Source: an uncultured virus (IMG/VR IMGVR_UViG_3300043539_001111) (taxonomy: Duplodnaviria > Heunggongvirae > Uroviricota > Caudoviricetes). Taken from it: a stretch of DNA of 64,000 nt. The notes below the pieces were generated by a model, which was given only the letters and a program-made list of their open reading frames with translations, was not told the origin of the DNA and made no database searches. Made by a program: the position numbers and the translations under genes. Below are positions 19,242-36,232 of the stretch, piece by piece. Each line of letters starts with the position of its first letter. Within the stretch, counting starts at the first letter, position 1. The stretch lies in IMG/VR virus record IMGVR_UViG_3300043539_001111, positions 1 through 64,000 of that record; one strand, 5' to 3'.

Positions 19242-19307
19242 ATTATTTAGTATATAGTATTAAAATAGTGTATTTGATGTATTTATAAATATTGAACCTT
19301 TCTTTTT

Positions 19308-20453: not shown

Positions 20454-20483
20454 TAATTAAATAATTTGTATTACTTTTGTCCA

Positions 20484-20747
20484 ATGAAAACATTTGATGA
20501 TTTAGTATTTAAACCGCACCCATTAGGTAGAGGTTGTGTTATGGCCAGATTAGATTTAGGAAACGATATTGAAGTTTCCGTGGTTGGAGGTCCGGGGTTA
20601 TATGGAAATGGAAAAACTTCATTTGAAGTCGCAGCATTCTACAAAACTCTTGGTAAATTTGTACCATTTGAAGATGGTGAAGATGTTTCAGGTTGGAACT
20701 CAAAAGTTTCCGTAACAAAAATTATTAACAGATTAGAAAATTTATAA
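20484..20747 (+). CDS. hypothetical protein
   Basis: ORF after Bacteroidota-type promoter. Confidence 0.7.
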   Translation: MKTFDDLVFKPHPLGRGCVMARLDLGNDIEVSVVGGPGLYGNGKTSFEVAAFYKTLGKFVPFEDGEDVSGWNSKVSVTKIINRLENL

Positions 20748-20750
20748 ATT

Positions 20751-21008
20751 ATGCCAGATTTTAGCACCTATGTTGACATTGACCCGAGTGAATACGTTGA
20801 TAATTGTTCACCTAGAGAAATTACAGAATTAATTAATATCCTTGTTGATGAAGGGTATTTAGATGGTGAGCCAGTTACATCCCCTAATCACCACAATCTA
20901 TTAGACGAGGAGTGGGCAAATATTATTAGTAAGATAATGAAGTCCCGATTACTCTTATCTAGCGAGGATGAAAATACAATAATTGAGATTGCAAAAAGAT
21001 TAATATAA
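20751..21008 (+). CDS. hypothetical protein
   Basis: ORF track. Confidence 0.7.
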   Translation: MPDFSTYVDIDPSEYVDNCSPREITELINILVDEGYLDGEPVTSPNHHNLLDEEWANIISKIMKSRLLLSSEDENTIIEIAKRLI

Positions 21009-21024
21009 AAAAAATAAAAAAATA

Positions 21025-21055
21025 TTTGACTTTTGATAAACTTTTTGTAAGTTTG
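21025..21055 (+). promoter_or_regulatory. Bacteroidota sigma-A-type promoter upstream of leader ORF 1
   Basis: TTTG-N19-TAAGTTTG. Confidence 0.65.
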
Positions 21056-21101
21056 TAATAGTTATTAAGAACAAGGTAGAAATACCACAAAAAAAAGAAA
21101 A

Positions 21102-21224
21102 ATGAAAAACACTAATAAACATATGAATGTCTCGATTTGGAACCAACAATTTAGTAATTGTTCGTATCCGCGTATCTCGCATACAAGTTCAGCTGATTTA
21201 TTAAGTGATTTAATTTTATACTAA
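21102..21224 (+). CDS. putative attenuator leader peptide of tRNA array 1 (40 aa)
   Basis: MKNTNKHMNVSIWNQQFSNCSYPRISHTSSADLLSDLILY*; contains AGTTCAG, complementary to the terminator 5' arm. Confidence 0.75.
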   Translation: MKNTNKHMNVSIWNQQFSNCSYPRISHTSSADLLSDLILY

Positions 21225-21247
21225 AGATTAAACCAATAATATAAGAT

Positions 21248-21283
21248 AAAATCCTGAACTCAAAAAGTTCAGGATTTTTTTTT
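21248..21283 (+). terminator. intrinsic terminator (attenuator 1)
   Basis: AAAATCCTGAACT-CAAAA-AGTTCAGGATTTT plus T tract. Confidence 0.9.
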
Positions 21284-21291
21284 GTCAAAAA

Positions 21292-21360
21292 ATTGGAAGT
21301 TAAAAAAAAAGGATTACCTTTGTCCCGTCAAAATAAAGGATAAGTTATTTGAAATATTGG
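21292..21360 (+). promoter_or_regulatory. sigma-A-type promoter plus boxA-like element before tRNA array 1
   Basis: TTG..TACCTTTG, then AAGTTATTTGAAATATTGG (near-identical at 25686). Confidence 0.6.
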
Positions 21361-21369
21361 TAAGAAAAT

Positions 21370-21451
21370 GGAAGAGTGGACAGTTGGTTGTCGAGCGGTC
21401 TTGAAAACCGTCGCTCGTAATGGGTTGCAGGTTCGAATCCTGTCTCTTCCG
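21370..21451 (+). tRNA. tRNA-Ser(TGA)
   Basis: cloverleaf, loop CTTGAAA, long variable arm. Confidence 0.9.
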
Positions 21452-21552
21452 CGGGTTAGTTAAATAGTTTAATCCACACCCAAAAAAGAATGTCCGGAGA
21501 GAGTCCGGGGCGAACGTAATTGTGGTAATCGTTCTTTAACTAAAAAATATTT

Positions 21553-21624
21553 TGCCCCTTCGTATATCGGTTAGTACACATGGTTTTGGTCCATGCGGGG
21601 GGAGTTCGATTCTCTCAGGGGTAA
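21553..21624 (+). tRNA. tRNA-Gln(TTG)
   Basis: CATGG-TTTTGGT-CCATG. Confidence 0.9.
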
Positions 21625-21631
21625 CAAAAAT

Positions 21632-21703
21632 GGTGATATGGTCGATTGGTTTAGGCACTGGATTGCAAACTCAGTTAGGTGGGTTCGATTCCTACTATCA
21701 CCT
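21632..21703 (+). tRNA. tRNA-Cys(GCA)
   Basis: loop TTGCAAA, U73. Confidence 0.9.
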
Positions 21704-21757
21704 CAACGGGTTCGGTGGAAACCCAAAAATAGATGATGAATCTATGTCCACCAAAAT

Positions 21758-21826
21758 GCCGAGGGGTCAGGTGACCGGAGATGGCTCATATCTATTTCTA
21801 GAATGGCTCGATACCATTTCTCGGTA
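21758..21826 (+). tRNA. tRNA-Met(CAT), atypical (4-nt D loop)
   Basis: GATGG-CTCATAT-CTATT; T loop CTCGATA. Confidence 0.65.
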
Positions 21827-21880
21827 CGAACAGCACTCAGTTTATATGTTTGAGGGTGGGAGGAATCTAAACATATATTT

Positions 21881-21951
21881 GCCTCGATGGCGTAATGGGA
21901 GCGTATTTGTCTTACATACAAATGGTGGGGGTTCAATTCCCTCTCGAGGTA
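21881..21951 (+). tRNA. tRNA-Val(TAC)
   Basis: TTTGT-CTTACAT-ACAAA. Confidence 0.9.
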
Positions 21952-22007
21952 CAAAAATCTAAAATTTGAGCAGTAAAATGTCTTAAATTTGAGCAATACA
22001 AAAAATT

Positions 22008-22088
22008 GGGTAGTAAAAGTCGTTCGGATACGGCAGCCAGACTGTAAATCTGGTCCTTTTGGGAGTGGTTCGAGTCCACTACTGCCCA
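22008..22088 (+). tRNA. tRNA-Tyr(GTA)
   Basis: CCAGA-CTGTAAA-TCTGG; atypical D arm. Confidence 0.85.
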
Positions 22089-22234
22089 CAATGATAATGG
22101 TCTTCTCTATCTCTCGGATGTCGACAATCCAAGATAGGTCAAAGAATTCACACACCCCCTGCCGGTGCACCGTAAAACTACGAATAAGCAGTTAAGATTG
22201 GAGCGAGATGGGTACTCCAACATTATCATTACTT

Positions 22235-22307
22235 GGTTCTCTTGTGTAAGTGGTCTGCACGCAAGACTGAAAATCTTGAGGATAGAGTTCGATTCTCTGG
22301 GGAACCA
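22235..22307 (+). tRNA. tRNA-Phe(GAA)
   Basis: CAAGA-CTGAAAA-TCTTG. Confidence 0.9.
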
Positions 22308-22384
22308 CGGAGTCCTGAAATAACAGGAAACCCCCACTCCCATATGGCAGCCGGTCCATTAACCCGGTGAAGTGGGGTAAATAT

Positions 22385-22470
22385 TGACGGGTTGCCGTAG
22401 TTGGTCGAACGGTCCGGACTGTTAATCCGGTGAAAATATTCCATCGTGGGTTCGAATCCCACCCCGTCAG
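22385..22470 (+). tRNA. tRNA-Asn(GTT) with long variable region
   Basis: CCGGA-CTGTTAA-TCCGG, G73. Confidence 0.85.
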
Positions 22471-22521
22471 CGAATTTTTTCGAAAATTAACATATTTATT
22501 ATTAACAAAAAAAGTTAATTT

Positions 22522-23061
22522 ATGGAAAGGTATTCGGAACAAATAATTTCTTTAAGAAATGAAGGTAAATCGTATAAAGAAATTAAAAAAATTTTAGGTT
22601 GTGCTTTATCAACTATCTCATATCATTGTACTAAAAATAAAGTTGGTGGTTTTTCAGATAGATTATCGGATGATGATAAGAAAAAATTACAAGAACTATA
22701 TGATGAATTAGGTTCAGTTAAAAAAGTTAGAAAAATGACAGGTAGGTCGGTTGAAACAATATTAAAATATGTTGTAACTAAAAAACCTACAAAAAAAATA
22801 ACATCATCTGAATCAGTTATAAATTGGAGAAAAAGAACTAAACAAAAGTTAATTCAATATAAAGGGGGTTCTTGTGAATTATGTGGATATTATAAATGTG
22901 AACGGGCACTTGAATTTCATCATATTAACCCTGAAGAGAAAGATTTTAGTATTAGTGGTAAAAGTTTATCGTTTGATAAATTAAAAGATGAGGTTGATAA
23001 GTGTATGTTAGTTTGTTCTAATTGTCATTGTGAAATACACGACGGACTTATTAACTTATAA
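22522..23061 (+). CDS. HTH + HNH endonuclease (homing-endonuclease-like)
   Basis: CELCGY..ALEFHH..CMLVCSNCHCEIH. Confidence 0.85.
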   Translation: MERYSEQIISLRNEGKSYKEIKKILGCALSTISYHCTKNKVGGFSDRLSDDDKKKLQELYDELGSVKKVRKMTGRSVETILKYVVTKKPTKKITSSESVINWRKRTKQKLIQYKGGSCELCGYYKCERALEFHHINPEEKDFSISGKSLSFDKLKDEVDKCMLVCSNCHCEIHDGLINL

Positions 23062-23068
23062 AATATAT

Positions 23069-23143
23069 GGTGGCTATAGTGTAACGGTTAACACGATAGA
23101 TTGTGGTTCTGTAAATGGGAGTTCGATTCTCCTTAGTCACCCA
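23069..23143 (+). tRNA. tRNA-His(GTG)
   Basis: loop TTGTGGT, G-1, ends CCA. Confidence 0.9.
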
Positions 23144-23148
23144 AAAAT

Positions 23149-23220
23149 GTCTCCATAGTTCAACGGATAGAACGTCAGGCTACGGACTTGAAGATGTGGG
23201 CTCGAATCCTGCTGGAGACA
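23149..23220 (+). tRNA. tRNA-Arg(ACG)
   Basis: TCAGG-CTACGGA-CTTGA. Confidence 0.9.
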
Positions 23221-23296
23221 CAAAAAAATCGCTGATAGTAATATCGAAGGTGTGTAATGATATCAACATCGTAGGTTAAGCGATATCCTACAAAAT

Positions 23297-23382
23297 GGAG
23301 AGTAAAACAATCAGGGTATTGTCACCTCCTGCTAAGAGAGTGGTTCGGTAAAATGGATGGATTTCGAGTATTCTGCTCTCCG
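23297..23382 (+). tRNA. tRNA-Ser(GCT), 8/4-type cloverleaf
   Basis: 8-bp acceptor GGAGAGTA/TGCTCTCC, 4-bp T stem, loop CTGCTAA. Confidence 0.8.
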
Positions 23383-23398
23383 CAGAAAAATAATAACA

Positions 23399-23473
23399 CT
23401 AGATGTAGAGGAGCCCGGAGTCCTCGCCGTCCTTGGAAGACGGAGACCGCAAGTTCAAATCTTGCCATCTAGA
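23399..23473 (+). tRNA. tRNA-Pro(TGG)
   Basis: CCGTC-CTTGGAA-GACGG. Confidence 0.9.
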
Positions 23474-23478
23474 CGACC

Positions 23479-23552
23479 CGGTACTTAGCTCAATTGGTTA
23501 GAGCACTCGCCTGATACGTGAGAGGTTATAGGTTCGATTCCTATAGTACCGA
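23479..23552 (+). tRNA. tRNA-Ile(GAT)
   Basis: CTCGC-CTGATAC-GTGAG. Confidence 0.9.
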
Positions 23553-23635
23553 CAAATGTGGCTCACAAACTTTGATTATTAAGTTCAAATTATGTATAAT
23601 TTGAGCCCAATGTTAAAGTAAAATGAGCTCAATAA

Positions 23636-23707
23636 TCCCCCGTAGCAAACCGGTGTAGGCAACTGGCTTTTAACCAGTGGGGTCAGGTTCAACTCCTGAC
23701 GGGGGAA
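23636..23707 (+). tRNA. tRNA-Lys(TTT)
   Basis: ACTGG-CTTTTAA-CCAGT. Confidence 0.9.
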
Positions 23708-23740
23708 CAAAAAGAATGTTTAACTAATAAATCAAAAGTT

Positions 23741-23980
23741 GTGAGTAGTGTTACTTGGTCAGTATTTAGTGCTGAATATTTTAGTGAAGTAAAAAAAGAA
23801 TCAATGTGGAGAAAACAAACTTTTCTTTATATGGGAGATTTATCCAACGTAGATATGACAACAGATTGGAGATTTAGTGATGTTGAAGGAAAAAGAAGAA
23901 AGTGTGAATTTTTAGGGTTAATAGATAATCCGGAATTTCCACTAAAAGAACCAATAGAAACATATAGAAATAATGAGTAA
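23741..23980 (+). CDS. hypothetical protein
   Basis: ORF overlapping HNH start. Confidence 0.6.
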   Translation: MSSVTWSVFSAEYFSEVKKESMWRKQTFLYMGDLSNVDMTTDWRFSDVEGKRRKCEFLGLIDNPEFPLKEPIETYRNNE

Positions 23981-24479
23981 GTACGGAAAAACATTGGTTT
24001 TGGATTCAAGTTATATGCCAAGGTCTATCATAAACACTGAAAGGGCTTTTGTCATAACTTATAAGGGTAATGCAAGTGTTATTGCCGAACATCCGGAATC
24101 ATTCAGTTTGATTAATCCTGAATTGGATATCAAAAAACCCTCAATTATTAGGGTTTACAAATATGTGAATCAACCGATTCATAAAGTTCCTTTAAGTAGG
24201 GAGAATGTTTATAGAAGAGATGGTTATGCCTGTGTATATTGTGGATGTGACAATCGTAAAACTTTAACATTAGACCACGTAATACCCCAATCTAAGGGAG
24301 GTAAAGATGCGTGGGACAACTTGGTAACTGCTTGTAAAAGATGTAATAGTGAGAAATCAAACTTGACATTGGAAGAATATGGTAAAGAAATACCTCAACC
24401 AAGACGACCACATTATTTGATGATGATAAAACAAGTTCATTATATTCCTGAAGAATGGAATGATTATTTATTTTTCTAA
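23973..24479 (+). CDS. HNH endonuclease (McrA-like)
   Basis: RRDGYACVYCG..LTLDHVIPQSKGG..NLVTACKRCNSEK. Confidence 0.9.
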   Translation: MSKYGKTLVLDSSYMPRSIINTERAFVITYKGNASVIAEHPESFSLINPELDIKKPSIIRVYKYVNQPIHKVPLSRENVYRRDGYACVYCGCDNRKTLTLDHVIPQSKGGKDAWDNLVTACKRCNSEKSNLTLEEYGKEIPQPRRPHYLMMIKQVHYIPEEWNDYLFF

Positions 24480-24536
24480 AAATTTTGGCAGAATAAAAAA
24501 TAGTTGTATCTTTGTTGAAATAAAAACGGAGAAACT

Positions 24537-24680
24537 ATGTCATTAGAAAAAGAAATTTTGGGATTTACAAATTGGTTATACGCTAACAATTGGAAACTAA
24601 TTGGTGATGGGATGTGTTTAAATCTTGAAACAAAGTCGATTGGTTATATTAACGAACTGATGGTTGAATATAATAAATAA
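24537..24680 (+). CDS. 47-aa hypothetical protein (not in ORF track)
   Basis: MSLEKEILGFTNWLYANNWKLIGDG...; TATCTTTG promoter upstream. Confidence 0.6.
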   Translation: MSLEKEILGFTNWLYANNWKLIGDGMCLNLETKSIGYINELMVEYNK

Positions 24681-24752
24681 AACACCCGCTACGTAACGAA
24701 AGCGCTACGACACGTACTATCTGGCAGGTCAGGTCGGGTGTTTATTGAAAAT

Positions 24753-24823
24753 GCAGGTCACAGACAAGGTGTCGGTACAGTCTCCAAAACTGTTACGGGT
24801 AGGTTCGATTCCTACGGTCTGCG
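24753..24823 (+). tRNA. tRNA-Trp(CCA)
   Basis: ACAGT-CTCCAAA-ACTGT, G73. Confidence 0.85.
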
Positions 24824-24893
24824 CAGAAGACGGAGAGTGAGTCAAGGGTAATTCCGTTATGGTTATCCCTCGAGGGTCTCTCCTGAAGAATTG

Positions 24894-25091
24894 AAAAGTT
24901 TAACAACCGGGGTGTCCATACTCTAAAAAACTAATGGACTAGTCGTGTTGATAGGGGTGACCTCCCAACAGTAGCACCGTAGTAATACGGTAAAGGATAG
25001 ATAAGGACTGGTACGCCGGTGAGGAACACGACCAATTCCGGAATTCCCATTGTAGCCCGCTACGACCCGAGGGCGGGGTTGTTAAACTTTT
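24894..25091 (+). ncRNA. unidentified ~200-nt multibranch structured RNA
   Basis: 15-bp closing stem AAAAGTTTAACAACC/GGTTGTTAAACTTTT, internal helices. Confidence 0.6.
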
Positions 25092-25113
25092 TTTAATAAT
25101 AAATCTTACCAAT

Positions 25114-25431
25114 ATGAAAAATACAATAGATAGAAGAATGTTGGATGTGGATATCACACCAATAACTTTATCAAAAATTAAATCTCAGGGATTAACACCA
25201 TATTATTATGATGAAAATACTGATATTGTTGAATTAACAGGACCAATTAAAGGGAAGACATATAATACAAAACCAAAAGAAGTGTTTTTATTAACTCCGG
25301 ATGAGTATGATAAAATTAAAAAATTATCAGACAATATTAAGGAAATGATTGAACTTAAATTAAAACAAATTAAGTTATACAAACAATATATTCCAGCGGT
25401 TATGGGAGAAATTATAAAAAAAAATAATTAA
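25114..25431 (+). CDS. hypothetical protein
   Basis: ORF track. Confidence 0.7.
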   Translation: MKNTIDRRMLDVDITPITLSKIKSQGLTPYYYDENTDIVELTGPIKGKTYNTKPKEVFLLTPDEYDKIKKLSDNIKEMIELKLKQIKLYKQYIPAVMGEIIKKNN

Positions 25432-25488
25432 TACTTGACACTTTTTAAAAAAGGACTATATTTATTAGAAATTACAATAACACAGAAA

Positions 25489-25563
25489 ATGCAAACTTTA
25501 AATACATTATTACTTACAATAGGCGCGGAGGGTAGAGATACAACTCGGTCGGAGATGGTATGA
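25489..25563 (+). CDS. putative attenuator leader peptide of tRNA array 2 (24 aa)
   Basis: MQTLNTLLLTIGAEGRDTTRSEMV*; contains GGAGATGG, complementary to terminator 5' arm CCATCTCC. Confidence 0.75.
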   Translation: MQTLNTLLLTIGAEGRDTTRSEMV

Positions 25564-25595
25564 TGTATTGTTAAGTAACATAATAATAATAGATT

Positions 25596-25628
25596 AAGTC
25601 CATCTCCAAAAGAGATGGATTTTTTTTT
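25596..25628 (+). terminator. intrinsic terminator (attenuator 2)
   Basis: AAGTCCATCTC-CAAAA-GAGATGGATTT plus T tract. Confidence 0.9.
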
Positions 25629-25637
25629 ATAAAAAAG

Positions 25638-25704
25638 TTTGGTATAATGAAATAAAGTATTATCTTTGTACCATCAAAAAGAAACAAGTTAATTGAAATA
25701 TTGG
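25638..25704 (+). promoter_or_regulatory. sigma-A-type promoter plus boxA-like element before tRNA array 2
   Basis: TTTG-N19-TATCTTTG; AAGTTAATTGAAATATTGG. Confidence 0.65.
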
Positions 25705-25715
25705 TAATATAAAAC

Positions 25716-25787
25716 GGCCCTATCGTCTATCGGTTAGGACATTTGGTTTTCATCCAAAAAAGTCGGGTTCGACTCCCGGTGGGGCTA
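25716..25787 (+). tRNA. tRNA-Glu(TTC)
   Basis: TTTGG-TTTTCAT-CCAAA. Confidence 0.9.
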
Positions 25788-25792
25788 CAATT

Positions 25793-25864
25793 GGGGATAT
25801 AGTATAACGGCTATTACAATGGTTTTGCAAATCGTAAATTAGGGTTCGATTCCCTATATCTCCA
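25793..25864 (+). tRNA. tRNA-Ala(TGC)
   Basis: loop TTTGCAA, G3.U70. Confidence 0.9.
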
Positions 25865-25868
25865 CAAA

Positions 25869-25940
25869 GGTCTATTCGTTCAACGGCTAGGATGCTACCC
25901 TGTCACGGTAGAGATGAGAGTTCGATTCTCTCATAGACCG
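25869..25940 (+). tRNA. tRNA-Asp(GTC)
   Basis: CTACC-CTGTCAC-GGTAG. Confidence 0.9.
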
Positions 25941-25989
25941 CAAACCATAGGATTAATTACCCTATGACTGTCAGGTTCGAAACTGACGA

Positions 25990-26102
25990 TTGATTATGGT
26001 GTAATGGTGCACAGAGGAACGGAGTAGGAATACGAAAAGCATTGGGCTTTCGTCGGTTCTGAAAGGGGACTCAGGATTAAGGTTCGAGTCCTTATTAATC
26101 AG
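25990..26102 (+). ncRNA. tRNA-like RNA with anticodon arm replaced by an expanded domain
   Basis: acceptor TGATTA/TAATCA, D arm, T arm TAAGG-TTCGAGT-CCTTA; no anticodon loop. Confidence 0.6.
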
Positions 26103-26108
26103 CAACAT

Positions 26109-26181
26109 CGCGAGGGGGAGGTATAGTATCTCATTGGTCTCATAAGCCAATCAAAGCAGGAGCGTTACCTGCCCTACGCTA
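26109..26181 (+). tRNA. tRNA-Met(CAT), initiator-like, atypical T loop
   Basis: TTGGT-CTCATAA-GCCAA; unpaired C1; T loop AGCGTTA. Confidence 0.65.
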
Positions 26182-26203
26182 CTAATTTAATAACTAAATC
26201 CGT

Positions 26204-26374
26204 ATGGCTACAGCAGCAAAAAGGTCAAGACAATCAAGAGCACTTGATATGTTACAGAACCAATTGAAAAGTGGTGTGAAAACACAAAAGGGTACAAGGG
26301 ACGTAAAAGTTCCATTAACAGATTCTGACAAGAAAAGAATCGAAAAAGAGATGGGGATTCTCCAATCTAGATAA
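26204..26374 (+). CDS. 56-aa basic hypothetical protein (not in ORF track)
   Basis: MATAAKRSRQSRALDMLQNQLKSGVKTQKG...ILQSR*. Confidence 0.65.
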   Translation: MATAAKRSRQSRALDMLQNQLKSGVKTQKGTRDVKVPLTDSDKKRIEKEMGILQSR

Positions 26375-26456
26375 TGAAAAAGTGTCTCGGTACGCTCTGA
26401 CGAAAGTTAACGACGAGGTCCCGGTAGACAGAACGCGTCTGATTCTACCCAAATCT

Positions 26457-26528
26457 GCGAATATCGTATAGTGGTTATTACTCCATCCTTCCAAGTTGGA
26501 GACGAGAGTTCGATTCTCTCTATTCGCT
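26457..26528 (+). tRNA. tRNA-Gly(TCC)
   Basis: loop CTTCCAA, U73. Confidence 0.9.
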
Positions 26529-26535
26529 CAAAATT

Positions 26536-26607
26536 GCCTTCATAGTTCAAGGGATAGAATAAGACACTTCTAATGTTTTGATATAGGTTCGAGTCCTATT
26601 GAGGGTA
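26536..26607 (+). tRNA. tRNA-Arg(TCT)
   Basis: AGACA-CTTCTAA-TGTTT. Confidence 0.9.
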
Positions 26608-26615
26608 CAACAATT

Positions 26616-26688
26616 GCTCTAGTGGTGGAACGGTATACACACTTGTCTTAGGAACAAGGTTTTGAGGGTTCGAATCCCTCCTTGAGTA
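26616..26688 (+). tRNA. tRNA-Leu(TAG), short variable region
   Basis: CTTGT-CTTAGGA-ACAAG. Confidence 0.85.
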
Positions 26689-26791
26689 CAATACATTATC
26701 ATAACTCGGTGTGATACACCGCCAACTACCTCCTTAAACAACGTGGGAACTGCGGTTCTCCCAATGTGGCCGAAGTGATGATGTTAAAAAA

Positions 26792-26947
26792 TGATAACTG
26801 TGGTGGAATTGGTATACACGGGGGTCTAGTCCAATATGATTGGTTGAGAGTGAACTTCTCAATCTCTTGCTCACGGACGGAAACTGCCGGAGAAAACACA
26901 GCAAGAAGTGTTATATCCTTACAGGTTCGAGTCCTGTTGGTTATCAG
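26792..26947 (+). ncRNA. tRNA-like RNA with ~100-nt central insertion
   Basis: acceptor TGATAAC/GTTATCA, Leu-type D arm, T arm ACAGG-TTCGAGT-CCTGT. Confidence 0.6.
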
Positions 26948-26998
26948 TAGTTTAAGAGACAGAGTTGACTTCTACTTAAAAAAAATACTCTGCGACAG

Positions 26999-27081
26999 GC
27001 TGGTGTCGCATAGAGGTTGATTGCACCTGATTTGTAATCAGGAACCGAAAGGTCACGTTGGTTCGAATCCAATCACCAGCT
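26999..27081 (+). tRNA. tRNA-Thr(TGT) with long variable arm
   Basis: CCTGA-TTTGTAA-TCAGG; variable ACC-GAAA-GGT. Confidence 0.85.
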
Positions 27082-27306
27082 CAGGTCATCCACTTTCGTT
27101 CTCTCCGTATGAGGGTATGGGTTCTTGGATGTAAAATGTAGAACTCGGACGGTTGAAATAGACCAAACGATAATACGGCCTTTTTACAAATTTTTGTGCG
27201 GACAAAAAATACGGGTTCTTCGGTGGGCACCGGGTTATTTCTCTTAAAATAACACAACTACTAAAAGTATGGACACATATGGGGAAACCGAACCCGTGTC
27301 CTATAT

Positions 27307-27386
27307 AGTCGGGTGGCGGAATTGGATAGACGCGGCCCCGTCGAGGGGTTTAACCGGAATTACAGGTTCGAGTCCTGTCCTGACTA
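27307..27386 (+). tRNA. atypical tRNA, possibly Arg(TCG)
   Basis: good acceptor, D and T arms; loop CGTCGAG lacks U33. Confidence 0.5.
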
Positions 27387-27603
27387 CAATTGAGTGAGAG
27401 ATACTCAATAGATTTGGCATCGTTTCTTAAACAATGATGTAGCTGACGCCTCAAACGGTTTTACAGAGGGGGTCTGTCGGAATAAAGGGAACTGACAACA
27501 TTCCCTCCGAGTAGTTGTTGACTTTTAAGCGGTAAGACGCGATGGGTTTTGAATAGGAAAACTGTGGACATCTACACCAAAATAATCTCATTGGTGGAAA
27601 CAC

Positions 27604-27675
27604 ATCCTCGTGGTGAAACGGTAAACACAACAAGTTTAAGCCTTGTAAGCTGCAGGTTCGACTCCTGTCGGGGAT
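27604..27675 (+). tRNA. tRNA-Leu(TAA), short variable region
   Basis: ACAAG-TTTAAGC-CTTGT. Confidence 0.8.
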
Positions 27676-27742
27676 ACTAATATTTACTAATATGAAAAAC
27701 CAACAACCAAACTCCACATAGTTTTAGCAGTTAGCTAAGATT

Positions 27743-27973
27743 ATGACTCAGAAATTGAGAATTTGGAGAGTAGTTCCCGTTTATAACGGTGTTCAGGCTC
27801 CCACTTTTTTCGTAGAAACTACGGAAGAGGGACGTGAGAAGGCAGAGGAATCTGCAATTAAACAAGCACGAATGAAATCGGGCTTAGGAAAGTTCAAACA
27901 ATGGAACTTTAGATTGGAGAAACTCTCTGTGAGGGTTGATAAATTTGGTAGGTATGTGAAACACCACCAATAG
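27743..27973 (+). CDS. hypothetical protein
   Basis: ORF track. Confidence 0.65.
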   Translation: MTQKLRIWRVVPVYNGVQAPTFFVETTEEGREKAEESAIKQARMKSGLGKFKQWNFRLEKLSVRVDKFGRYVKHHQ

Positions 27974-28012
27974 TTATTCAAGTGTTTATGGGTACACTAA
28001 AAACCCATAATT

Positions 28013-28087
28013 GGCCTCTTAACTCAGTCCGGTAAGAGTAGCTCGCTCATAACGAGAAGGTCACAGGTTCAAATCCTGTAGGGGCCA
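28013..28087 (+). tRNA. tRNA(CAT): Ile2 (lysidine) or elongator Met
   Basis: CTCG-CTCATAA-CGAG. Confidence 0.85.
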
Positions 28088-28091
28088 CAAC

Positions 28092-28122
28092 AACCTTCAA
28101 GGAAACTTGGGGGTTTTTTATT
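28092..28122 (+). terminator. terminator ending tRNA array 2
   Basis: AACCTTCAAG-GAAA-CTTGGGGGTT plus T tract. Confidence 0.8.
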
Positions 28123-28259
28123 TACAACAAAACAAATCATCCTTATATTTATTAATGAAACCTTGTTGCTGAGGTTCTCGTGTCCACAGAGGCATTTGAG
28201 TTGGAATTGATACCAACGAAGAGAAGTTCAATAAACATAAAAAATAAAATAAGGAAATT

Positions 28260-29132
28260 ATGTATTACCAAACAAAAACAGGTATGCCTTGTGCGTACAT
28301 CACAAAAGACAAAAAACGTCTTAAACAATTTGGACAAACTGTCTATCTTAAAAATGGGGATGAATTCGAACTAGAATTATTTAACCCAACATCAAACACA
28401 ATATTAGCAAAAATAAAACTTGACGGAAATTATATTGCCGGAGGAGGAATTGTACTTAAACCAGGACAACGTGTATATCTTGAGAGATATCTTAATGAAG
28501 CTCGTAAGTTTAAGTTTGAAACTTATGAGGTTGACGGAACATCAAACGAGGTATTGGACGCCATCGCCGGAAATGGGGATGTTGTTATTGACTTCTTTGA
28601 TGAATATAAACAACCGGTGTGGAATAACCCAATAACGTATTATGGTGGTTCATTTGGGGGCCCAAATTATGTTTCAGGGAATCCGTCATTTACTACTAAC
28701 ACAAATTATGTAAATGGTATTACAACAACCACAAATGGTAATGTATCATTTACATCATCAAGTAATACTGCGGGAGTTAATTTTAATACTACTTCAATAA
28801 GTAATACCTTTGCAGGACCAAACTTAAGAAGTGCGACTTCAAGATTAAAAAAATCTAAACCTAATTCTCGTAGTGAGGTTACTATGGATATGTTATCTAT
28901 GGACTCTATTGAAACCGGTAGAGTTGAAAAGGGGGGTTCATCTGACCAATCATTTCAAACAGTGAATAAAACTTTTAATCATCACACTTGTGCAAGTTCT
29001 GTATGGAAGATTCTACCTATGTCACAAAAGGTATATGAAAAACAAGACTTAAAAGTGTATTGTACTAACTGTGGAAAAAAAAGAAAAAAGGATTCCGATA
29101 AATTTTGTTCTTCTTGTGGGAACAAATTCTAA
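28260..29132 (+). CDS. hypothetical protein with C-terminal zinc ribbon
   Basis: YCTNCGKK..KFCSSCGNKF. Confidence 0.75.
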   Translation: MYYQTKTGMPCAYITKDKKRLKQFGQTVYLKNGDEFELELFNPTSNTILAKIKLDGNYIAGGGIVLKPGQRVYLERYLNEARKFKFETYEVDGTSNEVLDAIAGNGDVVIDFFDEYKQPVWNNPITYYGGSFGGPNYVSGNPSFTTNTNYVNGITTTTNGNVSFTSSSNTAGVNFNTTSISNTFAGPNLRSATSRLKKSKPNSRSEVTMDMLSMDSIETGRVEKGGSSDQSFQTVNKTFNHHTCASSVWKILPMSQKVYEKQDLKVYCTNCGKKRKKDSDKFCSSCGNKF

Positions 29133-29235
29133 AAAATAAACAAATAACAAGGTTTCAAATTAAATCCATCATTTTTTCGTGATGGATTTTTTTATATTAA
29201 AAATTTGACTATCTTTGTAAAAAAATATATAAAGT

Positions 29236-29709
29236 ATGAAAAGGATTTTTATTGATATGGATGGTGTGTTGGTCGATTTAGGTGCGGAATTCGATAAATG
29301 GTTCGATGAACATCCAAATTTAGTTCACAAGTATAAACATAGTCCAGACCATATTCCGGGTATTTTTAGAGACCCTAAACCATATGATGGTGCTATTGAA
29401 GCAATCAATAAGTTGGTTGAGAGTGGTAAGTATGAATTATTAATTGCTACTGCATCACCTTGGGGTAACCCATATGCCTCAACAGATAAGAGGTATTGGA
29501 TTGAAAAATATTTTGGTAGGTTGTTTCATAAGAAAATGGTAATAACTCACCGAAAAGATTTATTACTTGGTGATTATTTAATTGATGACAGAACGGCAAA
29601 TGGTGCCGGAGAGTTTACCGGTGAATTAATTCATTTCGGTTGGAATTATGAGAAAAAAGTTTGGAATGAATATCCTGATTGGGATAGTGTATTAAAAAAA
29701 TTATTATAA
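29236..29709 (+). CDS. 5'(3')-deoxyribonucleotidase (NT5C-like HAD)
   Basis: IFIDMDGVL, ATASPW, GDYLIDD. Confidence 0.85.
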   Translation: MKRIFIDMDGVLVDLGAEFDKWFDEHPNLVHKYKHSPDHIPGIFRDPKPYDGAIEAINKLVESGKYELLIATASPWGNPYASTDKRYWIEKYFGRLFHKKMVITHRKDLLLGDYLIDDRTANGAGEFTGELIHFGWNYEKKVWNEYPDWDSVLKKLL

Positions 29710-29710
29710 A

Positions 29711-30181
29711 ATGGAAAATAATGTAAAACCACCTTACCGTATCTATTTAGATGACGTAAGAACTCCAACGGGAGATAATTGGATTGTTGTAAGAAATTAC
29801 GATGAATTTGTTAGTGAAGTAAATAAAGTTGGGTTAGAAAATATTGATATAATATCTTTGGACCACGATTTGGGTGATACTGCAATGAAAGAGTATTTTG
29901 ATAATGTTTCTCCAAACTATACTTTGGATTATAACAATATTGAAGAAAAAACAGGATATGACGCTGCTAAATTCTTGGTTGCATTATTTCACAATACTAA
30001 TGAAGCTCGTTTTAATATGAGTAGAAGTGATAGAAAGGCGAATAAATTTGTATTTCCAATTGTATATGTTCATTCTGCAAACCCTATTGGGAGTGCGAAC
30101 ATTATGGGATATTTGAACAATTTTTATATGAACGAGGGTCAAGCACAAACTTGTGTTAGAGTCAGAATACCACACGTATAA
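29711..30181 (+). CDS. cyclic-phosphate-processing receiver-like domain protein
   Basis: IYLDDVR, ISLDHDLG, TGYD, VHSANPIG. Confidence 0.8.
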   Translation: MENNVKPPYRIYLDDVRTPTGDNWIVVRNYDEFVSEVNKVGLENIDIISLDHDLGDTAMKEYFDNVSPNYTLDYNNIEEKTGYDAAKFLVALFHNTNEARFNMSRSDRKANKFVFPIVYVHSANPIGSANIMGYLNNFYMNEGQAQTCVRVRIPHV

Positions 30182-30669
30182 TGAATATATTTTTCTTAGA
30201 TGAGAATCCTATATTGTCGGCACAATACCACGTAGATAAACACGTAGTGAAAATGATATTGGAAACTGCTCAGTTATTATGTTCGGTTCATCACGTAACC
30301 GACCAAGATACCGACCAAGTACCGTACAAGTTGTCACATAAGAATCACCCTTGTGCGGTATGGGCTCGTCAGAGTTTATCAAATTATTTGTACTTGTGTG
30401 AATTGGGATTGGAGTTGGGAAAAGAATATACCCACAGGTATGGTAAAAGACACAAATCAATAGATGTGATTAATTGGTGTATTATTAATAAACCAAACAT
30501 CCCGGACATTGGTTTCACTACTCCGGCGATGGCGATGCCGGATGAGTTTAAGGTAGATTCTGTTGTGGAATCTTATAGAAATTATTACATGGGTGCTAAA
30601 ATTAGTTTGGCGTCTTGGAAAAACAGAGAAAAACCTAAATGGTTTAATTATGAAAAAGAGTTAGTATGA
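30181..30669 (+). CDS. pyrimidine-dimer glycosylase/DenV-like protein
   Basis: MNIFFLD..AQYHVDKHVVKMILETAQLL..HKNHPCAVW. Confidence 0.75.
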   Translation: MNIFFLDENPILSAQYHVDKHVVKMILETAQLLCSVHHVTDQDTDQVPYKLSHKNHPCAVWARQSLSNYLYLCELGLELGKEYTHRYGKRHKSIDVINWCIINKPNIPDIGFTTPAMAMPDEFKVDSVVESYRNYYMGAKISLASWKNREKPKWFNYEKELV

Positions 30670-31358
30670 AGATTATAGTTTTAGGAGATGGTATATTAGG
30701 TGGTGAAATTATAAAACAAACTGGGTGGGATTATATTTCACGTAAGAAAGATAACATAAACCTTGATGATTTTGACAAATGGATGTTTAAGTTAGACAAA
30801 TATGATGTTATAGTTAATTGTATTGCAAATACTAACACATATTCGGATGATAAAGAATTACATATAAAGATAAATTATCATTTTGTAAAACATTTAGTTA
30901 ACTATTGTAATCAGATGGGTAAAAAGTTAGTTCACATATCTACTGACTATATTTATGCGAATTCTGACAATGAACGAAAAGAAAGTGACGTTCCCGTACA
31001 CCATTCAAGTTGGTATGGGTATAGTAAATTAATTGGTGACGCACATGTCGAATTAGAATGTGATAAATTTTTAATTTGTCGTTTATCTCATAAACCTTTC
31101 CCTTTTCAATATGATAGAGCTTGGACCGATGTTATCACAAATGCCGACTATACCCCTAAAATTGTTGATTTATTAGTTAAATTAATAAACAAAAATGTTG
31201 AAGGGGTTTTTAATATTGGTACAGATAAAAAAACTATATATGAGTTAGCATCACAAACAAAAAAGGTTGAGAAAATATTGTCACCTGAAAAAACACCAAA
31301 AAATGTTACAATGGATTTAAATAAGTTATTAAATTTTGTATATTTGCAGTATGATTAA
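30666..31358 (+). CDS. RmlD-like NAD(P)-dependent sugar reductase
   Basis: GDGILG, HISTDY, YGYSK. Confidence 0.8.
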   Translation: MKIIVLGDGILGGEIIKQTGWDYISRKKDNINLDDFDKWMFKLDKYDVIVNCIANTNTYSDDKELHIKINYHFVKHLVNYCNQMGKKLVHISTDYIYANSDNERKESDVPVHHSSWYGYSKLIGDAHVELECDKFLICRLSHKPFPFQYDRAWTDVITNADYTPKIVDLLVKLINKNVEGVFNIGTDKKTIYELASQTKKVEKILSPEKTPKNVTMDLNKLLNFVYLQYD

Positions 31359-32013
31359 GATAGATAAAGATAGAAAGGTATGGATAACTTCCGACACACA
31401 CTTTGGACATAAAAATATATGTCGTGGTGTGACTGCGTGGAGATTACCTGATGGGGGTATTCCAATTGCTCAAACTAGAGATTTTGATTCAATTAGTGAG
31501 ATGAATGATATGATTGTAAACAACATTAATAGTGTTGTTGGTCAAGATGATGTTTTGATTCACTTGGGAGATTGGAGTTTTGGGGGATTTGAAAATATCA
31601 AAAATTTTAGAGATAGAATTGTGTGTAAAGAGATTCACCTTATATTAGGTAATCACGACCATCACATTGAAAACAACCGAGAGGATTGTCAGGAAATGTT
31701 TGCAAGTGTTAATCACTACACAAAATTAATGTATAAGTTTGAGACATTGGTTTTAATGCACTATCCAATTGATTCTTGGGATGGGTTAAACAAAGGACAC
31801 ATCCACTTACACGGACACTGTCACTTACCTCAAACAAAAATTTTTGGTAAAGGCCGTAGAATGGATGTAGGAATGGATGGTAGTTTGTTCTTTTCACCAT
31901 ACGATTTAAGTAACGTAATTAAGATTGTTAAGGAAAGAGAGATTCGTTCAAATATGGATGGTGACCACCACACAGATGAGGTAATAACTGAAGATGGTAA
32001 AAAAAGAAAGTGA
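31351..32013 (+). CDS. calcineurin-like metallophosphoesterase
   Basis: SDTHFGH, HLGD, GNHD, HGHCH. Confidence 0.9.
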   Translation: MIKIDKDRKVWITSDTHFGHKNICRGVTAWRLPDGGIPIAQTRDFDSISEMNDMIVNNINSVVGQDDVLIHLGDWSFGGFENIKNFRDRIVCKEIHLILGNHDHHIENNREDCQEMFASVNHYTKLMYKFETLVLMHYPIDSWDGLNKGHIHLHGHCHLPQTKIFGKGRRMDVGMDGSLFFSPYDLSNVIKIVKEREIRSNMDGDHHTDEVITEDGKKRK

Positions 32014-32014
32014 T

Positions 32015-32305
32015 ATGAGAGTTAAAGAAACAAAAACAGATTTATTCATATGTTCCTGTCATAGTACAGAACATCAAATGGTTGTATTATATTCTGAAGA
32101 CGAAATTGATGGTATGACATATCCTATGGTTTATATTCACACACATCTTAATAAAAGACCATTTTGGCAAAGAGTTGGTTATGGATTAAGATATATTTTT
32201 GGGAGACAATGTAGATATGGTGCCTTTGATGAATTCATAATTAAATCGGAGGATGTTAAAGGTCTTGAAAAAATTATTAAACATTTAAAAGAATGTGAGG
32301 TATGA
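32015..32305 (+). CDS. hypothetical protein
   Basis: ORF. Confidence 0.65.
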   Translation: MRVKETKTDLFICSCHSTEHQMVVLYSEDEIDGMTYPMVYIHTHLNKRPFWQRVGYGLRYIFGRQCRYGAFDEFIIKSEDVKGLEKIIKHLKECEV

Positions 32306-32511
32306 TAAAAAATTTAATAATATTATTTTTATTTTTCACTTTGGTGTCTTGTGAAGCTGAAAAAAGAATTTATGAACATTCATATACTGATGAATGGTAT
32401 TATATTGACACGATGAGATTTCAGGTTTACAAAACCAAATCAGGTAAAAGATATATCCTTGTGTTAAATGAACAACAAACAAAATATAAACGACAATACA
32501 TAAAATTATGA
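32302..32511 (+). CDS. small putative lipoprotein
   Basis: lipobox LVSC. Confidence 0.65.
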   Translation: MIKNLIILFLFFTLVSCEAEKRIYEHSYTDEWYYIDTMRFQVYKTKSGKRYILVLNEQQTKYKRQYIKL

Positions 32512-32906
32512 AAGAATTATTTTTATTAAGAGGATTACCGGGAAGTGGTAAATCAACATTGGCAAAATCAATCGGTGGTGTTCATTACGAAGCCGATATG
32601 TATTTTATGAAAGATGGTGAGTATCAATTTGACATTACAGGATTAAGAGATGCTCATAGTTGGTGTCAGACACAAGTTAGTAATGCAATGCTTTTAAATT
32701 ACTCGGCAAATATTAATGAACGAATTGTAGTTTCAAACACATTCACACAAGAGTGGGAAATGACACCTTATTTTGAATTAGCGGAAAAATATGGATACAG
32801 AGTTCATTCACTTATCGTAGAAAACAGACACGGAGGTGTTAATGAACACGGGGTTCCGGAAGATAAATTGGGGTTAATGAAAAAACGTTTCGAGGTGAAA
32901 CTTTAA
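32508..32906 (+). CDS. P-loop kinase (AAA_33/polynucleotide-kinase-like)
   Basis: LLRGLPGSGKST, IVVSNTF, HGVP. Confidence 0.85.
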   Translation: MKELFLLRGLPGSGKSTLAKSIGGVHYEADMYFMKDGEYQFDITGLRDAHSWCQTQVSNAMLLNYSANINERIVVSNTFTQEWEMTPYFELAEKYGYRVHSLIVENRHGGVNEHGVPEDKLGLMKKRFEVKL

Positions 32907-32917
32907 TTGAAAAAATT

Positions 32918-33943
32918 ATGTTAGAAAAACTAAACAAATATTACGAAGACGGATTACTTTACAAACAAGTACATCCAACACTTCCATTAACCATATGGAA
33001 CTACACTGAAAAAGTTCAGTTCGAGAACCTATGGGATGAGGTGACCCTGATGTGTAGAGGTTTAGTTACCGATAACGAAGGGAATATGGTTGCAATACCA
33101 TTCCAAAAATTCTTTAATATAGAAGAAGGTAAATTTACCCCAACTGAAAACTTTGAAGTATTTGAAAAAATGGATGGTTCATTAGGGATTGTGTTTTGGT
33201 ATCAAGGTCAATGGGTGGTAGCCACTCGTGGTTCATTCACTTCTGACCAAGCAATCAAGGCGACAGAAATCCTTAAAAAATATAACAAAGATATTATGTT
33301 TAGACATTTGACTTTTTGTTTTGAAATTATCTATCCGGAGAACAGAATTGTTTTGGATTATGGTGATGATGAGAAACTAATTCTATTGGGGACATTTGAT
33401 AAGAACGGGAAAGAAACCGATTCTGAGATTTGGTCACAATGGGGGTTTGATGTGGTTAAAAAATATGATGGTATTAAGGATTTTAATCAACTTAAATCCA
33501 TGATTAAAGATGACCAAGAAGGATTTGTGGTAAAGTTCTCTAATGGAGATAGAATCAAAGTTAAAGGGGTTGAATATCTACGTCTTCACAAAATTATGAC
33601 TAATGTTACCACAACCGGTATTTGGGAATATCTTAAAAATGGTGAGGATGTCATGGAACTATTAAAAGATGTTCCGGATGAATTTTACAAAAAAATTCAA
33701 AACTATGTTAAAGATTTGAGATATTCTTACTTCCAAATATCTGAAGATGCAGGTAAAAAGTTTGATTATATGATGTATGGGAAATATAACGACAAAGAAC
33801 CTATCACAGATAGAAAAGAGTTTGCTGAGTGGGTATCAACCCAACCAAAACATTTGTCAGGGATTCTATTTAGAATGTTAGATAAAAAAGATTACTCTGA
33901 AATCATATGGAACCTAATCAGACCTGAATTTAAAAAATTGTAA
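32918..33943 (+). CDS. T4 Rnl1-like RNA ligase
   Basis: CRGLV, KFFN, EKMDGSL, EGFVV, KVKG. Confidence 0.9.
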   Translation: MLEKLNKYYEDGLLYKQVHPTLPLTIWNYTEKVQFENLWDEVTLMCRGLVTDNEGNMVAIPFQKFFNIEEGKFTPTENFEVFEKMDGSLGIVFWYQGQWVVATRGSFTSDQAIKATEILKKYNKDIMFRHLTFCFEIIYPENRIVLDYGDDEKLILLGTFDKNGKETDSEIWSQWGFDVVKKYDGIKDFNQLKSMIKDDQEGFVVKFSNGDRIKVKGVEYLRLHKIMTNVTTTGIWEYLKNGEDVMELLKDVPDEFYKKIQNYVKDLRYSYFQISEDAGKKFDYMMYGKYNDKEPITDRKEFAEWVSTQPKHLSGILFRMLDKKDYSEIIWNLIRPEFKKL

Positions 33944-34017
33944 AAAAGTGGGACATTAGTTCCACTTTTTTTATTTAATTACTATTTATAAGTTATATAA
34001 AACATTAAGTTAAAATT

Positions 34018-34623: not shown

Positions 34624-34624
34624 T

Positions 34625-35233: not shown

Positions 35234-35270
35234 AAAAACCCCTCCGTTAAGAGGGGTTTTTTGTTTTAGA

Positions 35271-35444: not shown

Positions 35445-35629
35445 AATACTTTTGTTTTAATTAAATTTTAAGTTCGTTAAATAAATAGGTTATTAAAACC
35501 ACGAAGTCAAACATTATATTAAAAAAATTCACTTAATCGTTATAGTAAAAAATTTTTAAAAATATTTTTAGATAATGTTTGGTGGAAAGAAAAAAAGTAT
35601 TATCTTTGTACTCACAAAACGGATAAGAT

Positions 35630-36141: not shown

Positions 36142-36232
36142 CAAAAAAAAATTAAAAAAAAGTTTGACAGATAAAAATAAATGTCTTATCTTTGTACAAG
36201 AAATAAAGTTCATAAAAATATTGAAAGATTAG

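Follow-up and report, generated by a model that had tools for sequence, protein, structure and literature searches.

A codon-sampling leader with the anatomy of an attenuator precedes a tRNA array in an uncultured phage

The first 64 kb of a 74,464-bp contig (31.5% GC) from an uncultured virus of the Caudoviricetes (IMG/VR record IMGVR_UViG_3300043539_001111), a stretch of 64,000 nucleotides that we refer to as the window, contains two tRNA arrays, each of which is headed by a short open reading frame (ORF) followed by an intrinsic terminator. The unit in front of the second array, leader 2, is probably a ribosome-mediated transcription attenuator of the trp type that samples many codons and controls tRNA genes, and a member of a family of such attenuators heading phage tRNA arrays. 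Leader 2 has the anatomy of an attenuator, is conserved in related phages, carries codons that match the tRNAs of its array and is predicted to adopt alternative RNA pairings; from these features, we infer that the ORF is translated, that ribosomes stall on it and that read-through of the terminator is regulated. The components of the unit and of the array behind it are as follows.

25435-25464, plus strand: promoter of leader 2 (TTGACA, 16 nt, TATATT(TA)), kept in relatives
25489-25563, plus strand: leader ORF 2, 24 codons and TGA (MQTLNTLLLTIGAEGRDTTRSEMV), with the codon sampler at approximately codons 2-19
25502-25514, plus strand: segment 1, the 5′ strand of the predicted 1:2 helix (RNAalifold with 14 variants, and minimum-free-energy fold)
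25551-25568, plus strand: segment 2, with GGAGATGG at 25551-25558; 25557-25568 is the 3′ strand of the 1:2 helix and contains the stop codon
25596-25628, plus strand: intrinsic terminator (the attenuator), stem 25596-25606/25612-25622, T run 25620-25628
25638-25668, plus strand: promoter-like site after the terminator (TTTG, 19 nt, TATCTTTG; also TGGTATAAT), paralogous to 21293-21322
25693-25707, plus strand: conserved motif TTGAAATATTGGTAA just ahead of the first tRNA, with genome copies only at 21349 and 25693
25716-28088, plus strand: tRNA array 2, ten tRNAs called by ARAGORN
28092-28115, plus strand: terminator-like hairpin at the end of array 2

The ORF consists of exactly the 24 codons listed in an earlier note on this DNA, plus TGA, and is preceded by the top promoter-like match in 19500-30000 (11/12), which also fits the TTG-19 nt-TAnnTTT(A) type of the other intergenic sites in the genome. 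A short ORF that can be translated is enclosed by a promoter and an intrinsic terminator, and its frame is maintained in 13 distinct leader-2 variants. The terminator comprises 11 pairs followed by nine T residues (-15.1 kcal/mol), and the perfect 8-mer pairing pointed out in the earlier note was borne out by the sequence: GGAGATGG (25551-25558) is fully complementary to CCATCTCC (25600-25607), which lies in the terminator 5′ arm and includes the first loop base. In RNA ending after the terminator 5′ arm (segment 3), a helix between segments 2 and 3 was predicted for both leaders, and the predicted fold of the full-length RNA consisted of the 1:2 helix and the terminator. The stop codon of leader 2 (25561-25563) lies 3 nt beyond GGAGATGG, and masking a ribosome footprint at this codon (25546-25576) removed the 8-mer pairing, and with it the 2:3 helix, from the predicted fold.

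The same structures were followed through 14 leader-2 variants, in which the 2:3 helix was paired in 112/112 cells versus 29-56% in slid controls, the terminator stem was kept in 14/14 variants with G-U changes, and the 1:2 helix was placed by RNAalifold at columns 34-38/96-100 and 43-46/89-92 and showed a single compensatory change, from CG to UA. Concerted changes were found in the leader-1 family. In one clade of four contigs (that of L014; loci of relatives carry L numbers), AAGTTCAG is replaced by AGATTCAG together with the replacement of CTGAACTC by CTGAATCT, the terminator 3′ arm remaining constant; this amounts to two compensatory pairs and was reached by 0/500 shuffles. At the more distant locus L207, whose leader we take as a distant homologue of leader 1 because the DIIFE tail is shared (no alignment was made), the in-ORF segment and both terminator arms have been replaced in concert (AGTTAGGGG, 9 nt; 19/5,000 shuffles), and L191 retains GGAGATGG together with a terminator of its own (23/5,000 shuffles).

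In the proposed circuit, RNA would start at the promoter at 25435-25464 and the 24-codon ORF would be translated behind the moving polymerase. If the sampler were decoded quickly, the ribosome would arrive at the stop codon and cover GGAGATGG, the terminator would form and the RNA would end at 25628. If any sampled codon were decoded slowly, as when its charged tRNA is scarce, the ribosome would stall upstream and hold segment 1 off segment 2, leaving GGAGATGG free to pair with CCATCTCC; this 2:3 pairing would block the terminator, and the polymerase would continue into the tRNA genes. Slow decoding might stem from a codon mismatch with the host, from host shut-off or from a tRNA-cleaving defence. 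Abundant phage tRNA would shut the circuit off, and read-through would supplement a basal level of expression in those arrays that have a promoter behind the terminator. Because the leader holds approximately one codon for each array tRNA, a shortage of any of them would be reported and would induce the array as a whole.

Array 2 opens with tRNA-Glu at 25716 and was called as Glu-TTC, Ala-TGC, Asp-GTC, Gly-TCC, Arg-TCT, Leu-TAG, Thr-TGT, Arg-TCG, Leu-TAA and a tRNA with the anticodon CAT. Leader codons were scored against array tRNAs either by strict wobble or at the codon-box level, a generous rule under which U34 reads all four codons of a four-fold box and CAT reads both ATG and ATA; the null consisted of all windows of equal length slid along 340 distinct long ORFs (approximately 86,000 codons) of the phage and its relatives. 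At the codon-box level, 19/23 codons after the ATG are matched and 10/10 tRNAs are covered, and both values together were reached by 0/78,414 windows (at least 19 codons alone, 212/78,414; 10/10 tRNAs alone, 34/78,414). The match of 19/23 equals the fit of about 18 of the first 20 codons estimated in the earlier note. In the window, the leader codons thus match what the genes behind them supply, as in an attenuator, and the replacement of a run of one codon by many different codons would be a new form of leader sensor.

The same design is repeated at the first array, for which the following features were recorded.

21025-21055, plus strand: promoter of leader 1 (TTTGAC, 19 nt, TAAGTTTG)
21102-21224, plus strand: leader ORF 1, 40 codons, with codons 2-27 as array-1 sampler and the antiterminator strand AGTTCAG at 21186-21192
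21248-21283, plus strand: intrinsic terminator of leader 1 (-16.2 kcal/mol)
21370-23708, plus strand: tRNA array 1 (Ser-TGA, Gln, Cys, Val, Tyr, Phe, Asn, His, Arg-ACG, Pro, Ile-GAT, Lys)
24752-24823, plus strand: tRNA-Trp(CCA)-like gene between array 1 and leader 2, a sub-threshold Rfam tRNA-clan match (37.6 bits)

Scored at the codon-box level against array 1 plus the Trp-like gene, leader 1 has 26/39 matched codons and 13/13 covered tRNAs, values reached together by 27/72,974 windows. The Trp-like gene was not called by ARAGORN; it folds into a cloverleaf with the anticodon loop CTCCAAA and a reduced D arm, relatives carry a normal tRNA-Trp(CCA) in its place, and its presence accounts for the TGG codon in leader 1. 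The match is specific to each pair: leader 2 is enriched for codons of its own array (z = +3.7), and the swapped combinations are depleted, with 2/18 for leader 2 against array 1 (z = -3.5) and 2/26 for leader 1 against array 2 (z = -3.9). In a matrix of six leaders and six arrays, the excess falls on the diagonal. The assertion of the earlier note that the same logic occurs twice with complementary amino-acid sets is upheld by these comparisons. Its description of the two leaders as unrelated in sequence is not wholly correct, as the 86 nt downstream of the two leader terminators are paralogous (63/89 columns identical) and end in TTGAAATATTGGTAA. We also noted a small hairpin, GGTA....TACC (21074-21085), in the 5′ untranslated part of leader 1, which is invariant in 18/18 variants (alignment A2).

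Leader 2 is a conserved in-frame unit that always stands ahead of array 2 in relatives. Searches with flanking proteins found it at 10/10 loci and leader 1 at 8/8. Scans with exact DNA motifs gave 21 loci for leader 2 and 26 for leader 1, with two chance matches each; scans by peptide alignment gave 27 loci for leader 1 (three new contigs) and 33 for leader 2 (16 new loci), and leader-2 peptides identified 21 loci in metagenome contigs, one with a broken ORF. Altogether, 19 distinct ORF sequences were collected for leader 1, with 36, 40 or 41 sense codons, and 13 for leader 2, with 24 sense codons in 12 variants and 23 in one. Start codon, stop codon and frame are kept in the leader ORFs, and insertions and deletions comprise whole codons. 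Synonymous changes stay inside the range of one tRNA (AAT/AAC, CAA/CAG, ATT/ATC, ACA/ACG/ACT, GGC/GGT/GGA and GCG/GCC), and the other changes replace one in-set codon by another. The leader-2 variants also reorder the residues T, L, I, G and A, as in TLLLTIGA, TILLLTGA and ILLTIAGT; such reshuffling would be odd for a structured peptide and natural for a list of codons.

The in-set codons occupy a defined part of each leader. In the 19 leader-1 variants, codons 5-27 belong to the array set with the sole exceptions of AGA (one variant) and ACC (three variants), and most of codons 28-40 fall outside it. In leader 2, Asn at position 5 and one TCA are the exceptions within codons 3-19, and codons 20-24 lie for the most part outside the set. 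The tails of both leaders differ in length among variants. In both leaders, the boundary of the in-set part coincides with the start of the segment complementary to the terminator 5′ arm. At nearly every locus, each called array tRNA species has a leader codon, the uncovered ones being only Gly-GCC (L010/L021) and Ser-CGA (L034). At L042 and L051, 15/15 tRNAs are covered and 25/26 sampler codons are matched, and for L042 no window (0/74,334) equalled both measures in either wobble mode; the corresponding values for L048 are 16/16 and 25/26. The leader-1 exceptions Trp, Met and Ser-AGT are explained by these relatives, whose array-1 sets are fuller. In the phage represented by L048 and L021, in which tRNA-Arg(TCT) is located in array 1 and not in array 2, leader 1 has two AGA codons and leader 2 has none.

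We also assessed more distant phages. A motif of 15-16 nt, TTGA[A/C]ATATTG[G/A]TAA, precedes the first tRNA of both arrays by 6-25 nt (21349-21363 and 25693-25707) and also heads tRNA arrays in phages further removed, whether or not a leader is present; it may serve as an atypical promoter or as a signal for processing. Scanning with this pre-tRNA motif yielded at least 119 stretches, from which 80 loci were taken. In these loci, 15 motif copies stand directly before a tRNA: seven belong to the leader-1 or leader-2 families, and four of the eight others (at L207, L159, L181 and L191) have a different short ORF and an intrinsic terminator upstream. No leader was present at L152, L184 or L190, which carry the motif, and at L222 the motif is situated within an array. 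In distant phages with merged arrays, the leaders sample 18 to 20 amino acids. The L207 leader covers 20/20 species of a merged array and contains all 20 amino acids in 41 residues (coverage, 38/177,708 windows; amino-acid count, 441/176,912), and the L159 leader covers 18/20 species of a merged array (399/185,668 windows). For the array at L181 (Gly, Met, Val, Pro, Ile, Asp, Ala, Thr, Cys), which is a different set, the leader is rich in just these residues; 10/10 are covered and 26/41 codons are matched (both, 807/176,912 windows).

Several observations weigh against the attenuator interpretation; they concern the codon match, the pairings and the promoters. Under strict wobble, with CAT reading ATG only, leader 2 matches 13/23 codons and covers 8/10 tRNAs, rising to 14/23 codons when CAT is allowed to decode ATA as well. 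The Gln and Asn codons of leader 2 and the Thr codons of leader 1 are exceptions throughout, and at several loci leader codons are kept although the array lacks their tRNA, for example those for Ala (L021, L026) and Val (L040, L055). A co-variation between AGA and tRNA-Arg(TCT), clean at first, was weakened by three contigs with AGA and without the tRNA in array 1: AGA occurs in leader 1 of four contigs, and tRNA-Arg(TCT) in array 1 of only one. At L191, the match of a leader-2-like ORF to its array is not significant (8,833/191,240 windows), and in the 1.5-kb metagenome contig L147 the leader-2 ORF is broken. The tRNA calls come from ARAGORN alone and many of the loci are cut at 3-6 kb. Variants within a family share ancestry and are not independent, which leaves a small number of genuinely independent cases (leader 1 together with L207, leader 2 together with L191, L159 and L181).

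On a chance explanation, the terminator would simply end the upstream gene at 25114-25431, and coincidence, selected by eye, would account for the ORF, the 8-mer and the codon fit. Such a reading could draw on the strict-wobble score, which is only moderately unusual (both measures reached by 146/78,414 windows), on the 8-mer considered alone, as an 8-nt Watson-Crick complement to the 12-nt arm arose within 102 nt upstream in 159/20,000 mononucleotide shuffles, and on the promoter-like sites, which show no excess (45 found versus 38.9 expected from shuffles). We nevertheless regard coincidence as very improbable, given that the ORF is conserved in frame over dozens of contigs, that not one of the 78,414 windows attains both measures at the box level, that the design is repeated with other tRNA sets at array 1, L207, L159 and L181, and that the leader-array matrix is strongest on its diagonal.

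No compensatory change was found in the leader-2 2:3 helix among the 14 variants, and in ten leader-2 variants belonging to one clade, codon 22 is CAG, TCG or ACG rather than GAG, which leaves 5-6 contiguous pairs and a duplex energy of approximately -8 versus -12 to -15 kcal/mol; the expectation voiced in the earlier note that homologous leaders would keep the complementary 8-mer fails in these ten. A clear antiterminator was not found at L159 or L181. The leader-1 stop codon is situated 30 nt beyond segment 2, and a ribosome at this codon leaves segment 2 uncovered, so termination after smooth translation would have to rely on the 1:2 helix re-forming; the extended 1:2 helix of leader 1 is paired in 92% of cells versus 20-39% in slid controls, a level that 43/500 shuffles reach.

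Could the unit act through RNA structure alone, with a structured 5′ region and a terminator serving as a pause, processing or insulation signal and the reading frame being incidental? In leader 1, codons 15-28 are invariant even at synonymous sites, partly within a perfect hairpin (CAACAATT/AATTGTTG), and GGAGATGGTATGA is invariant in many leader-2 variants, as this alternative would predict. However, part of this invariance was imposed by the exact-pattern DNA scans themselves, and the peptide scans recovered in-frame variants with altered codons. Whole-codon insertions and deletions, the retention of start and stop codons and the restriction of changes to synonymous or in-set codons also speak against an incidental frame, and the match between codons and tRNAs would be left without a reason. 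We consider this alternative improbable.

The strongest competing explanation arises from the promoter-like site at 25638-25668, which the earlier note had missed. Every leader-2 variant seen has such a site behind the terminator, as do 21 leader-1-family variants (18 in alignment A2 plus L086, L088 and L093), and in several relatives a protein ORF comes after it. Because it precedes tRNA-Glu, array 2 of the window could be transcribed without read-through, and because it follows the terminator, the unit resembles an ordinary promoter-gene-terminator cassette to which read-through would only be additive. The lack of a promoter behind the attenuator, a defining feature of this class of units, holds at L042, L051, L159 and L207 and not in the window. 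L042 and L051 are the leader-1-family variants without TAnnTTTG between terminator and first tRNA, and their first tRNA starts 107-110 nt past the leader stop codon; at L207 and L159, a tRNA begins approximately 14-20 nt from the start of the T run. As no canonical promoter intervenes at these four loci, their tRNAs can be reached only through the terminator, barring an unrecognised promoter, for which the pre-tRNA motif is a candidate.

On this basis, leader 2 might instead be an autonomous small gene or RNA, with the array transcribed from its own promoter at 25638-25668; the codon match would then be real and its output something other than read-through, for example a trans-acting RNA or peptide, or a response to stalling. 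The canonical promoter-like site after the terminator in the window and most relatives accords with this possibility, as does the usual intergenic layout of this genome, in which a terminator is followed by a promoter (for example, 29162-29189 and then 29210). For Sinorhizobium trpL, an attenuator RNA and a leader peptide are reported to act in trans (PMC7968998, PMC7298713). Conversely, the four relatives in which tRNAs directly follow the terminator with no canonical promoter between are difficult to accommodate, the in-ORF segment co-varies with the terminator arm, which would be needless in a free-standing gene, and the reshuffled residues and variable tail length fit a folded or binding peptide poorly. 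We judge an autonomous gene to be unlikely, and it is the alternative to which we give the most weight. The attenuator reading of leader 2, as first put forward in the earlier note, is supported in part, by its conservation, by the match to the array and by the repetition of the design; it is qualified by the extra promoter and by the perfect 8-mer, which is not conserved, and the regulation itself is a proposal.

Several further observations concern the surroundings of leader 2 and the content of array 2. The upstream gene at 25114-25431 encodes 105 residues. Contigs of two RNA runs join 25095 to 25430, which implies that some relatives lack this gene and have leader 2 straight after the GC-rich segment 24830-25095. 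In many relatives (L003 at approximately 4560-4700, L010, L112 and others), a protein of about 40 residues, acidic and starting with MEGQE... or MDD..., is encoded directly before tRNA-Glu; its ORF follows the post-terminator promoter, its stop codon lies inside the pre-tRNA motif, and the window has lost it. The tRNA list given for array 2 in the earlier note was recovered with respect to the ten called tRNAs. The additional 'Met' gene that it placed between Asp and Gly was called by neither ARAGORN nor Rfam; a CAT anticodon loop is seen by eye at approximately 26110-26183, where relatives carry tRNA-Met(CAT). The possible Arg(TCG) gene was called by ARAGORN at 27307-27387 (81 nt) and is atypical, with a long variable arm, G33 and an Rfam tRNA score of 35 bits; its homologues were called '???' or Ser(CGA). 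A co-variation between CGG and tRNA-Arg(TCG) was considered and rejected, as L020 and L019 retain CGG without such a tRNA call and the window gene is atypical.

Between Thr and Leu-TAA, L019, L022, L026 and L030 carry unassigned tRNA-like genes with 8-nt anticodon loops and four-letter 'anticodons' (gaaa, gtaa and tagt), which might be frameshift-type tRNAs. After tRNA-Asp, a 160-nt segment (25945-26104) is skipped by contigs of three RNA runs, and relatives therefore seem to lack it. In its intron mode, ARAGORN proposed intron-bearing tRNAs at 25991-26103 and 26793-26946. Array order and content vary strongly among relatives. The interior of array 1 contains an ORF with helix-turn-helix and HNH-like features (22522-23061), and an HNH endonuclease gene (23973-24479) is located between array 1 and the Trp-like gene; both look like homing-endonuclease insertions.

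The content of the contig reads like that of a phage, with tRNA genes (23 called by ARAGORN), HNH endonuclease genes among the tRNAs and a GOLLD RNA. Promoter-like sites in intergenic regions throughout the genome have the form TTG(AC), approximately 19 nt, TAnnTTTG, which we take to be the Bacteroidota promoter consensus, and a Shine-Dalgarno sequence was absent before those genes that were inspected. No close relative was found among 50,697 deposited phage genomes; a tblastn search of the same number of phage records with the leader-1 peptide gave no match, and a DNA search of the deposited phage genomes with 24900-28200 gave tRNA-sized matches only. The best matches of a neighbouring protein, all weak, are to Prevotella megaphages. 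Contigs of four metatranscriptome runs over 20700-28300 cover both leaders, and the summed contig depth peaks in the leader-1 bin in 3/4 runs, a measure that cannot rank regions and in which RNA ends are invisible. The GOLLD RNA at 36950-37361 is full length (Rfam, 306.5 bits) and has a promoter-like site upstream at 36469. Upstream of it lie a sub-threshold YrlA-like match (36221-36318; 40 versus 69 bits) and, beside this match, a fused tRNA-like gene (36318-36409), both preceded by a promoter-like site at 36187.

Leader-peptide transcription attenuators of amino-acid operons include trpL, hisL, leuL, thrL, ilvL and pheL (the last being the subject of PMC3082878). Leader 2 resembles them in the placement of a short ORF between promoter and intrinsic terminator, in a segment in or near the 3′ end of the ORF that is predicted to pair with the terminator 5′ arm and to be sequestered by an upstream segment (1:2, 2:3, 3:4), and, in the model, in the logic by which slow decoding would lead to read-through. 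Unlike these systems, leader 2 is phage-encoded, stands before tRNA genes instead of enzymes, contains no run of a single codon but approximately one codon for each of 10-20 tRNAs and, in the window, is followed by a promoter-like site. None of the Rfam amino-acid leader families was found at 25435-25715; a Thr_leader match at 21226-21283 was below threshold (31.8 versus 55 bits) and fell on the leader-1 terminator only.

In E. coli, attenuation also governs an aminoacyl-tRNA synthetase operon, pheST, through the pheM leader. There, as proposed here, a leader peptide controls a gene of the translation apparatus and senses the supply of charged tRNA, but pheM responds to a single amino acid and regulates the production of a protein enzyme, whereas leader 2 would be a multi-codon sampler in front of a tRNA array. 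T-box riboswitches need no translation: an uncharged tRNA is bound directly by the specifier codon and the T-box sequence. They share with leader 2 the sensing of tRNA status and a choice between terminator and antiterminator upstream of translation-related genes, and differ in that the sensor here would be a translated ORF; no match to the T-box family was obtained in 19000-38000 with E values up to 1 (Rfam 15). In mycobacteria, polycysteine leaderless short ORFs are reported to act as cysteine-responsive attenuators (bioRxiv 10.1101/834739). The codon content of a short ORF sets the signal for downstream expression in those cases as well, although one amino acid is sensed, the operons are cellular, and mechanism and target are different.

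It has long been asked why phages carry tRNA genes, and very little is known about the control of those genes. Phage tRNA arrays are thought to sustain translation when host tRNAs are unsuitable or under attack (PMC10264068); the consulted part of that work addresses why phages carry tRNAs, and a sensor controlling the expression of an array was not found described in it. A full-text literature search, with subscription journals outside its scope, likewise returned no account, in the texts seen, of tRNA genes or phage tRNA arrays being controlled by a leader peptide or an attenuator. If the proposed mechanism is correct, leader 2 and its counterparts would be the first leader-peptide attenuators known for tRNA genes and the first many-codon sensors. 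With them, classical attenuation would come to include non-coding RNA genes and expression signals of the Bacteroidota type, and a leader peptide would be shown capable of forming a natural multi-input 'OR gate'.

Because the make-up of the arrays varies among related phages, leader-array pairs constitute a purely computational test set for this idea. The phage would treat its tRNA supply as a regulated, feedback-controlled resource, and the question of which shortage opens which leader would offer a handle on the supply and counter-defence hypotheses. For the family as a whole, we think it reasonably likely that uncultured freshwater phages, probably of Bacteroidota, run their tRNA arrays on demand through codon-sampling leaders, and that these leaders follow the arrays as the latter are split, merged and altered by tRNA exchange.

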